Of a stretch of 64,000 bases of DNA, positions 19,754 through 22,149 are shown piece after piece. The first letter of the stretch is position 1. Each line of letters begins with the position of its first letter. The position numbers and the translations under genes were made by a program. Source of the DNA: Escherichia coli (GTDB lineage Bacteria; Pseudomonadota; Gammaproteobacteria; Enterobacterales; Enterobacteriaceae); assembly GCF_003790525.1 (NCBI RefSeq), contig NZ_CP033632.1. One strand, 5' to 3'. Under the pieces are notes generated by a model. It made no database searches, was not told the origin of the DNA, and worked only from the letters and a program-made list of their open reading frames with translations.

Positions 19754-19774
19754 GGGGGAACCGCAGAATTCGGA
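19754..19774. repeat. 21-bp remnant of a Tn21/Tn501-family terminal inverted repeat
   Basis: gggggaaccgcagaattcgga matches the first 21 bp of the 38-bp IR; compare the complete IR at 49753..49790. Confidence 0.6.
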
Positions 19775-20172
19775 TTTCATATAACCTATTTTTGTTGTTC
19801 AAGTTTGATTCCTTGGACTCTTCAGAATACAGACAGCAAATAAAGACCTTTCGTTTGAAGTATGTATTTCTTGCAGCAAAAATAATCAAAACCGCAAGAT
19901 ATGTAATCATGAAGTTGTCGGAAAACTATCCGTACAAGGGAGTGTATGAAAAATGTCTGGTATAATAAGAATATCATCAATAAAATTGAGTGTTGCTCTG
20001 TGGATAACTTGCAGAGTTTATTAAGTATCATTGCAGCAAAGATGAAATCAATGATTTATCAAAAATGATTGAAAGGTGGTTGTAAATAATGTTACAATGT
20101 GTGAGAAGCAGTCTAAATTCTTCGTGAAATAGTGATTTTTGAAGCTAATAAAAAACACACGTGGAATTTAGG
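19775..20172 (+). mobile_element. ISEcp1: ISEcp1 3' remnant with IRR and outward promoter; left boundary approximate
   Basis: Sequence ...tgttgctctgtggataacttgcagag...ttgaaa...tacaat...acacacgtggaatttagg recalled as the ISEcp1 right end; a 42-bp spacer follows. Confidence 0.8.
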
Positions 20173-20214
20173 GAATACTGATGTAACACGGATTGACCGT
20201 ATTGGGAGTTTGAG

Positions 20215-21090
20215 ATGGTGACAAAGAGAGTGCAACGGATGATGTTCGCGGCGGCGGCGTGCATTCCGCTGCTGCTGGGCAGCGCGCCGCTTTATGCGCA
20301 GACGAGTGCGGTGCAGCAAAAGCTGGCGGCGCTGGAGAAAAGCAGCGGAGGGCGGCTGGGCGTCGCGCTCATCGATACCGCAGATAATACGCAGGTGCTT
20401 TATCGCGGTGATGAACGCTTTCCAATGTGCAGTACCAGTAAAGTTATGGCGGTCGCGGCGGTGCTTAAGCAGAGTGAAACGCAAAAGCAGCTGCTTAATC
20501 AGCCTGTCGAGATCAAGCCTGCCGATCTGGTTAACTACAATCCGATTGCCGAAAAACACGTCAACGGCACAATGACGCTGGCAGAACTGAGCGCGGCCGC
20601 GTTGCAGTACAGCGACAATACCGCCATGAACAAATTGATTGCCCAGCTCGGTGGCCCGGGAGGCGTGACGGCTTTTGCCCGCGCGATCGGCGATGAGACG
20701 TTTCGTCTGGATCGCACTGAACCTACGCTGAATACCGCCATTCCCGGCGACCCGAGAGACACCACCACGCCGCGGGCGATGGCGCAGACGTTGCGTCAGC
20801 TTACGCTGGGTCATGCGCTGGGCGAAACCCAGCGGGCGCAGTTGGTGACGTGGCTCAAAGGCAATACGACCGGCGCAGCCAGCATTCGGGCCGGCTTACC
20901 GACGTCGTGGACTGTGGGTGATAAGACCGGCAGCGGCGACTACGGCACCACCAATGATATTGCGGTGATCTGGCCGCAGGGTCGTGCGCCGCTGGTTCTG
21001 GTGACCTATTTTACCCAGCCGCAACAGAACGCAGAGCGCCGCCGCGATGTGCTGGCTTCAGCGGCGAGAATCATCGCCGAAGGGCTGTAA
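20215..21090 (+). CDS. blaCTX-M-65: CTX-M-9-group extended-spectrum beta-lactamase, CTX-M-65-like
   Basis: 291-aa translation equals CTX-M-14 as recalled except KVMAVAAV (A77V) and NAERRRDVL (S272R). Confidence 0.85.
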
Positions 21091-21092
21091 CT

Positions 21093-22149
21093 GGTTTTGT
21101 TGAATAAATCGAACTTTTGCTGAGTTGAAGGATCAGATCACGTATCTTCCCGACAACGCAGACCGTTCCGTGGCAAAGCAAAAGTTCAAAATCACCAACT
21201 GGCCCACCTACAATAAAGCCCTCATCAACCGTGGCTCCATAACTTTCTGGCTGGATGATGAAGCTATTCAGGCCTGGTATGAGTCAGCAACACCTTCTTC
21301 ACGAGGCAGACCTCAGCGCTATTCTGACCTTGCCATCACGACTGTGCTGGTCATTAAACGCGTATTCAGGCTGACCCTGCGCGCTGCGCAGGGCTTTATT
21401 GATTCCATTTTTTCTCTGATGAACGTTCCGCTACGCTGCCCGGATTACAGCTGTGTCAGCAGGCGGGCAAAGTCGGTTAATATCAGTTTCAAAACGCCCA
21501 CCCGGGGTGAAATCGCACACCTGGTAATTGATTCCACCGGGCTGAAGGTCTTCGGTGAAGGCGAGTGGAAAGTCAAAAAGCATGGCCAGGAACGCCGTCG
21601 TATATGGCGTAAGCTGCATCTGGCAGTTGACAGTAAAACACATGAAATCATCTGCGCTGACCTGTCGCTGAACAACGTTACGGACTCAGAGGCCTTCCCC
21701 GGGTTAATCCGGCAAACCCACCGGAAAATCAGGTCAGCCGCCGCCGATGGAGCTTACGATACCCGGCTCTGTCACGATGAACTGCGGCGTAAGAAAATCA
21801 GCGCGCTTATCCCGCCCCGAAAAGGTGCGGGTTACTGGCCCGGTGAATATGCAGACCGTAACCGTGCAGTGGCTAATCAGCGAATGACCGGGAGTAATGC
21901 GCGGTGGAAATGGACAACAGATTACAACCGTCGCTCGATAGCGGAAACGGCGATGTACCGGGTAAAACAGCTGTTCGGGGGTTCACTGACGCTGCGTGAC
22001 TACGATGGTCAGGTTGCGGAGGCTATGGCCCTGGTACGAGCGCTGAACAAAATGACGAAAGCAGGTATGCCTGAAAGCGTGCGTATTGCCTGAAAACACA
22101 ACCCGCTACGGGGGAGACTTACCCGAAATCTGATTTATTCAACAAAGCC
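21093..22149 (+). mobile_element. IS903: IS903 (1057 bp, 18-bp IRs)
   Basis: IRs ggttttgttgaataaatc at 21093 and gatttattcaacaaagcc at 22132..22149. Confidence 0.9.
21170..22093 (+). CDS. IS903 transposase (GTG start)
   Basis: ORF 21125..22093 translation is IS5-family. Confidence 0.88.
   Translation: MAKQKFKITNWPTYNKALINRGSITFWLDDEAIQAWYESATPSSRGRPQRYSDLAITTVLVIKRVFRLTLRAAQGFIDSIFSLMNVPLRCPDYSCVSRRAKSVNISFKTPTRGEIAHLVIDSTGLKVFGEGEWKVKKHGQERRRIWRKLHLAVDSKTHEIICADLSLNNVTDSEAFPGLIRQTHRKIRSAAADGAYDTRLCHDELRRKKISALIPPRKGAGYWPGEYADRNRAVANQRMTGSNARWKWTTDYNRRSIAETAMYRVKQLFGGSLTLRDYDGQVAEAMALVRALNKMTKAGMPESVRIA

Follow-up and report, generated by a model that had tools for sequence, protein, structure and literature searches.

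The genetic surroundings of blaCTX-M-65 are already known, both from the literature and from sequence records. In plasmid pEC012 and related plasmids, the gene has been described within the module IS26-fip-ΔISEcp1-blaCTX-M-65-IS903D-iroN-IS26 (PMC4947595). The IS26 bracket of this module has been reported (PMC10783052; PMC4947595), and the ISEcp1-blaCTX-M-65-IS903-iroN unit has been described as "inserted in Tn1722" (PMC6052338). An association of the unit with Tn1721 is also listed for CTX-M-19 in a table of a review (Poirel et al., 2003, as cited in PMC4086240). Here, we analyzed a 64,000-nt stretch of Escherichia coli contig NZ_CP033632.1 (assembly GCF_003790525.1), referred to below as the window. 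An earlier note, made from the letters of the window, had described positions 19754–22149 as a blaCTX-M-65-like module with a 21-bp remnant of a transposon inverted repeat upstream. We put the probability at roughly 95% that this region is the standard IS26-bracketed module, IS26-fip-ΔISEcp1-blaCTX-M-65-IS903-iroN-IS26, with the history reconstructed below from its relatives, and nothing contradicts the identification of the module itself. The real unit is wider than 19754–22149 and spans 17379–23791, between two copies of IS26.

The window can be compared with pKC396 (NC_019087.1), an IncN plasmid of E. coli ST131 that carries blaCTX-M-65. Window positions 17376–23791 are 99.98% identical to pKC396, with 1 mismatch in 6416 bp, and positions 19700–23791 are 100% identical. 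Both share the TTTAA, the 21-bp remnant of a left inverted repeat (IRL), ISEcp1 nt 1259–1656, blaCTX-M-65, IS903B, the receptor fragment, and the junction with the transposon gene mcp. However, pKC396 keeps the whole IncN backbone with mobF complete, and it has the full 5' end of mcp, res, tnpR, and the start of tnpA, cut by IS26, followed by the right inverted repeat (IRR). In the window, by contrast, IS26 cuts inside both mobF and mcp, and the module lies in another replicon. Judging from their published descriptions, pHN7A8, pEC012, and their relatives have the same gene order and IS26 bracket as the window (PMC4947595; PMC10783052; PMC6052338). Both in this group and in the window, the module co-occurs with IS26-fosA3 and IS26-oqxAB modules, and the arrangement of these neighboring modules varies among the plasmids of the group. 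The features of the region are as follows.

16559–17378, plus strand: IS26, left boundary, 820 bp, terminal repeats GGCACTGTTGCAAA; a full copy by blastn
17379–19084, plus strand: 3' part of the IncN relaxase gene traI/mobF, 5' side cut by IS26 (Pfam AAA_30, TraI_hel_assoc_N, UvrD_C_2)
19084–19710, plus strand: fipA (DUF6710 family), an IncN backbone gene (Pfam DUF6710, E = 9.6e-45)
19749–19753, no strand: TTTAA, left copy of the 5-bp target duplication of Tn1722, recurring after the IRR in pKC396
19754–19774, plus strand: GGGGGAACCGCAGAATTCGGA, corresponding to the outer 21 bp of the 38-bp IRL of Tn1721/Tn1722 (exact match to IRL positions 1–21)
19775–20172, plus strand: ISEcp1 remnant, nt 1259–1656 (398 bp), 100% identical to complete ISEcp1 copies
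20069–20098, plus strand: outward promoter-like site in ISEcp1, TTGAAA, 18 nt, TACAAT (consensus scan, 10/12 matches)
20173–20214, plus strand: 42-bp spacer from the ISEcp1 IRR to the ATG (counted), identical in CTX-M-14 plasmids
20215–21090, plus strand: blaCTX-M-65, 291 codons plus stop, exact match to a protein named CTX-M-65
21093–22149, plus strand: IS903B, complete at 1057 bp, bounded by terminal inverted repeats and annotated under this name in identical records
22150–23247, plus strand: gene for a TonB-dependent receptor, 3' part, published under the name "iroN" (NCBIfam PqqU, Pfam TonB_dep_Rec_b-barrel)
23301–23314, plus strand: alternative right repeat GCGTTGATTCCTGG (8/14 match to the ISEcp1 IRR), where the ISEcp1 transposition unit ends on the right
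23315–23319, no strand: TAACA, 5-bp target duplication of the ISEcp1 unit, right copy; its left counterpart was lost in the deletion discussed below
23315–23791, minus strand: internal fragment (nt 61–537) of mcp of Tn1721/Tn1722 (Pfam PAS_3), right side cut by IS26
23792–24611, minus strand: IS26, right boundary, inverted relative to the left copy (blastn)

The 21 bp upstream of ISEcp1 are the first 21 bp of the 38-bp repeat found at the mcp end of intact Tn1721/Tn1722 elements, including those of plasmids L003 and L004, the Klebsiella grimontii plasmid p5512.56-2-CTXM14 (L005, NZ_CP067389.1), and pKP96 (NC_011617.1). In L003 and L004, the complete repeat is GGGGGAACCGCAGAATTCGGAAAAAATCGTACGCTAAG, and 151 bp farther on lies the 3' end of mcp, a PAS-domain methyl-accepting chemotaxis gene; beyond mcp, L004 carries tnpR and a TnAs1/Tn1721-type tnpA. 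Because the repeat adjoins mcp in both plasmids, the remnant can be identified as the outer 21 bp of the Tn1721/Tn1722 IRL, and it is a true scar of this mcp end, left from an earlier transposon end. A fragment of the same gene is still present 3.5 kb downstream of the remnant, beyond the range of the earlier note, and is 99.9% identical to the full mcp gene beside the IRL in L003. Of the Tn1722 gene order (mcp beside the IRL, then res, tnpR, and tnpA), only this fragment is found in the module; res, tnpR, and tnpA are missing due to the IS26 cut and are present in pKC396, L004, p5512.56-2-CTXM14, and pKP96. With IRL bases 1–21 kept and no complete 38-bp terminal repeat in the module, what is left of the transposon is a remnant and not a transposable member of its family.

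The earlier note had attributed the 21 bp to a repeat of the Tn21/Tn501 type. This was right as to family, but the Tn21 repeat is off at 4 of 21 positions, and the precise source is the Tn1721/Tn1722 IRL at 21/21. A remnant derived from Tn21 or Tn501 themselves would be very improbable, even though these transposons belong to the same Tn3-family subgroup as Tn1721 and have similar 38-bp repeats. Repeats of Tn501 are close to those of Tn1721, and the part of pKC396 beyond mcp suggests a hybrid formed at res, both of which count in favor of such an origin. However, the Tn21-type repeat that the window itself contains (55970–56007) matches the 21 bp at only 17/21 positions, and we rejected Tn21 as the source with these 4 differences in view. 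Even the window's complete Tn1721 IRR (49753–49790) matches at 18/21, with 3 differences. In the relatives, moreover, the repeat is contiguous with mcp, a gene characteristic of Tn1721/Tn1722, and part of mcp is in the window.

The transposon of pKC396 deserves a separate remark. Beyond mcp (pKC396 positions 10353–11274), the res region resembles the typical Tn1722 of L004 less closely, at 96.4% identity compared with 99.9% to L003 across mcp. The tnpR product of pKC396 (WP_003124096.1) belongs to a gene that is about 82% identical to TnAs3-type tnpR and 99.9% identical to a tnpR located beside a DUF3330 gene. These values suggest that the pKC396 transposon is a hybrid that arose by recombination at res.

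Comparison with relatives supports a history of five steps. In the first, ISEcp1 carried a unit made up of blaCTX-M-14, IS903B, and the receptor fragment into mcp of Tn1722, duplicating TAACA. In the second, mutation in place changed CTX-M-14 to CTX-M-24 (S272R) and then to CTX-M-65 (A77V). In the third, a copy of Tn1722, with or without the unit, inserted into an IncN plasmid between fipA and nuc, duplicating TTTAA. In the fourth, a 2472-bp deletion joined IRL base 21 to ISEcp1 base 1259, producing the 21-bp remnant, and in the fifth, copies of IS26 would have excised the segment from the IncN plasmid. Comparing the sequences shows the first four of these steps. The order in which mutation, IncN insertion, and deletion took place, as well as the mechanism of the deletion, we infer.

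For the first two steps, the relevant relatives are p5512.56-2-CTXM14 and pKP96. The former contains a whole Tn1722 with the complete ISEcp1-blaCTX-M-14-IS903B-receptor-fragment unit within mcp and TAACA at both ends of the unit, while the intact mcp of L004 has a single TAACA. Over 4017 bp, the window differs from p5512.56-2-CTXM14 at two bases, 20453 and 21037, and these are the two codon changes between the alleles. For pKP96, which has the same undeleted structure, the same mcp site, and TAACA, only one base (20453) differs over this length, and its allele is CTX-M-24. We conclude from this that CTX-M-14 gave rise in place, by way of CTX-M-24, to CTX-M-65 within the composite element. Unlike the window, both plasmids have ISEcp1 and the IRL in full, along with the entire 3' part of mcp. 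Their transposons also lie at other target sites, with the duplication TAACC in pKP96.

For the third step, the evidence comes from pKC396 and from other IncN plasmids. In pKC396, TTTAA flanks both the IRL remnant and the IRR of the transposon, so that the copy at 19749–19753 of the window has its counterpart after the pKC396 IRR, and the two form the 5-bp target duplication of Tn1722. When we reconstructed the empty site (400 bp with a single TTTAA), IncN plasmids proved to contain it without interruption between fipA and nuc, at 100% identity; at least 80% of the reconstruction is covered by 699 plasmid records. Consequently, the suggestion that the 21 bp are a footprint of an earlier transposon end is borne out by the target duplication, the empty site, and the mcp fragment of the same transposon. 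Chance likeness to a Tn3-family repeat, with no transposon behind it, is the least probable alternative of all: the match is a short one that lacks the inner 17 bp of the repeat, but 100 shuffles gave 0 such matches even allowing 3 mismatches, the 21/21 match is to the IRL of intact elements, a fragment of mcp from the same transposon lies downstream, and we take the pairing of the 21 bp with an IRR and a TTTAA duplication in pKC396, together with the empty site, as a refutation.

For the fourth step, alignment with p5512.56-2-CTXM14 shows that its positions 3045–5516 are missing from the window, a loss of 2472 bp that runs from IRL base 22 to ISEcp1 base 1258. The resulting junction of backbone, IRL, and ISEcp1 is found in full in 143 PLSDB records. 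A shorter form is present in the Klebsiella pneumoniae plasmid p246421-KPC, where only the last 7 bp of the remnant, ATTCGGA, stand between IS26 and ISEcp1 nt 1259; many other Klebsiella records start matching at this same ISEcp1 base. Taken together, the 143 full junctions and the 7-bp form tie most copies of blaCTX-M-65 to one IncN-borne Tn1722 ancestor.

A different account of the junction would have the end of Tn1722 transposing into ISEcp1 and truncating it, with no deletion involved. Published descriptions of ISEcp1 as "disrupted by part of Tn1721" or "truncated by fip" (PMC5241659; PMC4947595) can be read in this way. However, the repeat is oriented with its outer end (GGGG) toward the IncN backbone and TTTAA, while ISEcp1 meets the break at repeat base 21, and this orientation, with a break inside the repeat, marks the junction as a deletion rather than the insertion of a transposon end into ISEcp1. 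In the undeleted ancestors p5512.56-2-CTXM14 and pKP96, it is ISEcp1 that is inserted in mcp. A deletion has also occurred independently, with both end points different, in the Salmonella phage-plasmid SJ46. Transposition into ISEcp1 is therefore highly improbable, slightly more so than an origin from Tn21 or Tn501, and the wording "ISEcp1 truncated by fip" in some papers is a misdescription of a junction that we attribute to deletion.

SJ46 (KU760857), which carries blaCTX-M-27 on a P1-like backbone (PMC5241659), has the same Tn1722-embedded unit, with 4 nt different over 4017 bp. Its own deletion brought ISEcp1 nt 1127 next to a stretch of Tn1722 that comprises the complete IRL and 513 bp beyond it. 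The whole Tn1721-like unit was transposed in next to ref, and SJ46 has neither an IncN fragment nor an IS26 bracket. We considered whether SJ46 has the same junction as the window and rejected this, because the start of the alignment at 19775 only marks where the window's ISEcp1 ends, and the end points in SJ46 differ.

Three points limit the history as reconstructed. The IS26 copies that bracket the segment have opposite orientations, which means that it does not constitute a simple translocatable unit with direct repeats. No microhomology was found at the end points of the deletion in the comparison of the window with p5512.56-2-CTXM14, and thus the sequence suggests no mechanism for it. Finally, in plasmid pZ0117EC0036-2, blaCTX-M-65 occurs together with an almost complete ISEcp1 and with the receptor/mcp junction seen in the window, which may mean that the allele predates the deletion or that the record reflects recombination. 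In this 15-kb E. coli record (NZ_CP098216.1, positions 15382–5565), ISEcp1 is present from about nt 6, and the structure lies beside iroD and iroE. Aligned with p5512.56-2-CTXM14, the record shows 22 mismatches and 16 gap openings over 5.6 kb and looks like an uncorrected long-read assembly.

As to the fifth step, the left 2.4 kb of the unit is IncN plasmid backbone, made up of the 3' part of traI/mobF and fipA. The mobF of pKC396 is complete, and positions 17379–19084 show no difference from its 3' part; fipA is annotated "fipA: FipA protein" in the IncN records JN102341 and JN102342. The segment is flanked by IS26 on both sides, as expected for an IS26-bounded module, but the copies are not in the direct orientation of an IS26 compound transposon or translocatable unit. 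In pEC012, no target duplications were present at IS26 according to its authors (PMC4947595). Since ISEcp1 has lost its IRL and transposase, and Tn1722 lacks a complete IRL, res, tnpR, tnpA, and IRR in the module, neither element should be able to move the gene. The mobility of blaCTX-M-65 would now depend on the flanking IS26 copies, homologous recombination, and the carrier replicon.

The allele itself was assigned as CTX-M-65 by an exact-sequence look-up of the 291-aa product in a protein collection, which returned "extended-spectrum class A beta-lactamase CTX-M-65". An exact match to another CTX-M allele would have contradicted the assignment suggested in the earlier note, and the match returned was to CTX-M-65. 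On the NCBIfam blaCTX-M profile, the product scored 617.8 bits against a cut-off of 570, and the class A motifs STSK, SDN, and KTG, together with glutamate E166 in TEPT, can be read in its translation. Compared with the CTX-M-14 product of plasmid L002 (3441–4313), 289 of 291 residues are identical, and only V in place of A at precursor residue 80 and R in place of S at residue 275 distinguish the two. These changes correspond to A77V and S272R, which the earlier note gave as the defining combination; the second is also written S274R, and a review table gives A77V and S274R for CTX-M-65 (PMC4086240). In addition, the 3 kb at 19500–22500 are 100% identical to many plasmids annotated as carrying blaCTX-M-65 by NCBI and AMRFinder, with E. 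coli, Salmonella, and Enterobacter as hosts among the matches listed; on this identical DNA, AMRFinder reports 100% identity to CTX-M-65. Judged from its sequence, the product of 20215–21090 is thus CTX-M-65, a class A extended-spectrum beta-lactamase (ESBL) of the CTX-M-9 group.

Upstream of the gene, the coordinates of ISEcp1, an IS1380-family element, were derived from plasmid L002, in which a complete copy occupies 1743–3398 (1656 bp). When 19711–20214 was used as a query, similarity to ISEcp1 started exactly at 19775, and the alignment proposed earlier for 19711–20172 resolves to 19775–20172. The remnant consists of the last 191 nt of tnpA (to 19965), the non-coding right end, and the 14-bp IRR ACGTGGAATTTAGG at 20159–20172. 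A functional insertion sequence would have 1656 bp, an IRL, an intact gene for the 420-aa transposase, and an IRR; here the IRL and about 85% of tnpA are absent, and the last 63 transposase codons remain. What survives is a right end with an outward promoter-like site and the IRR upstream of a captured gene. A TG precedes the –10 hexamer of this strong promoter-like site, and blaCTX-M-65, which is intact, starts 116 nt downstream of it. The outward promoter in ISEcp1 drives the expression of captured blaCTX-M genes, and we infer that the one in the surviving right end most likely transcribes blaCTX-M-65. Both the retained promoter region, at 100% identity, and the 42-bp spacer described in the earlier note hold, as the IRR ends at 20172 and the ATG begins at 20215. 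Upstream of blaCTX-M-14, these 42 bp match blaKLUY of Kluyvera georgiana (PMC4086240).

Downstream of the gene, the stop codon TAA (21088–21090) is followed by CT and then by IS903B at 21093, in agreement with the 2-bp distance given previously. The transposase open reading frame (ORF) of IS903B spans 21125–22093 and belongs to the IS5 family (transpos_IS5_2, 357 bits). No 9-bp target duplication of IS903B was found, the flanking 9 bp being GCTGTAACT and ACGCGCTGG, although the element is complete. Because these flanks differ, the DNA on its two sides, blaCTX-M and the receptor fragment, was not originally contiguous. The receptor fragment is the C-terminal half of its gene, with PqqU as the best NCBIfam match (E = 2.4e-184, profile positions 336–676 of 676). 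While it is called "iroN" in the literature, its best model is therefore PqqU and not a salmochelin receptor model. Searching the literature on where the fragment came from yielded no decisive result. The right boundary of the ISEcp1 unit beyond this fragment was set by comparison with the uninterrupted mcp of L004 and with the ancestral form in p5512.56-2-CTXM14.

The module lies within a larger array of IS26 copies, of which the window contains six full and one partial by blastn.

872–27928: IS26 array, with full copies at 872–1691, 3637–4456, 10533–11352, 16559–17378, 23792–24611, and 27109–27928, and a partial copy at 6209–6350

Besides the CTX-M-65 module, the array includes IS91-family and IS4-family transposase genes, aph(3')-II (9495–10289), a gene for an Rrf2 regulator with oqxAB (11306–16302), and fosA3 (24934–25350). 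At the far side of the window, positions 49753–54942 hold a complete 38-bp repeat of the Tn1721 IRR type, GGGGAGCCCGCAGAATTCGGAAAAAATCGTACGCTAAG, and after it a tnpA of the Tn3 family in truncated form, a gene for a transporter, tet(A), and tetR. These features make up the tet(A) arm of Tn1721, a second, separate piece of this transposon in the window. The Tn21-type 38-bp repeat at 55970–56007, GGGGGCACCTCAGAAAACGGAAAATAAAGCACGCTAAG, stands at the start of a mercury-resistance operon with merR (56003–56572) and merA (57658–59352), followed by an ORF for an EAL-domain protein (59785–60669).

Between these regions, positions 27929–49752 (21.8 kb) are collinear with the backbone of P1-like (Punavirus) phage-plasmids at 94–99.6% identity, and they include the terminase genes pacA/pacB, the C1 repressor gene c1, cre, ref, and phd/doc. 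This stretch is bounded on the left by the IS26 array with oqxAB, blaCTX-M-65, and fosA3, and on the right by the Tn1721 IRR and the tet(A)/mer region. In PLSDB, no record reaches 80% coverage of window 8001–33000. A query across the IS26/P1 junction gave no PLSDB record covering most of it, and among the E. coli RefSeq complete genomes none reached 80% coverage. In a search of phage sequences, no record holds most of the blaCTX-M-65 module. It is possible, though we regard it as doubtful, that a P1-like phage-plasmid acquired the IncN-derived CTX-M-65 module along with fosA3 and oqxAB. More than 42 kb of the window is resistance DNA that is not from P1; consequently, the replicon, if its backbone is complete, would probably be too large for the P1 headful and hence a defective phage.

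The ESBL gene blaCTX-M-65 is of clinical importance and has spread in E. coli, Salmonella Infantis, K. pneumoniae ST11, and Proteus. The confirmation of the allele and its context is useful for annotation and surveillance, and it adds nothing new to what was known of the module. The junction of TTTAA, the 21-bp IRL remnant, and ISEcp1 nt 1259 is a useful lineage marker. The only unusual point of this known module is its vehicle, the adjacent P1-like backbone, which may be new. If the module was indeed acquired by a P1-like carrier, this would provide a possible transduction route for the CTX-M-65, fosA3, and oqxAB genes.

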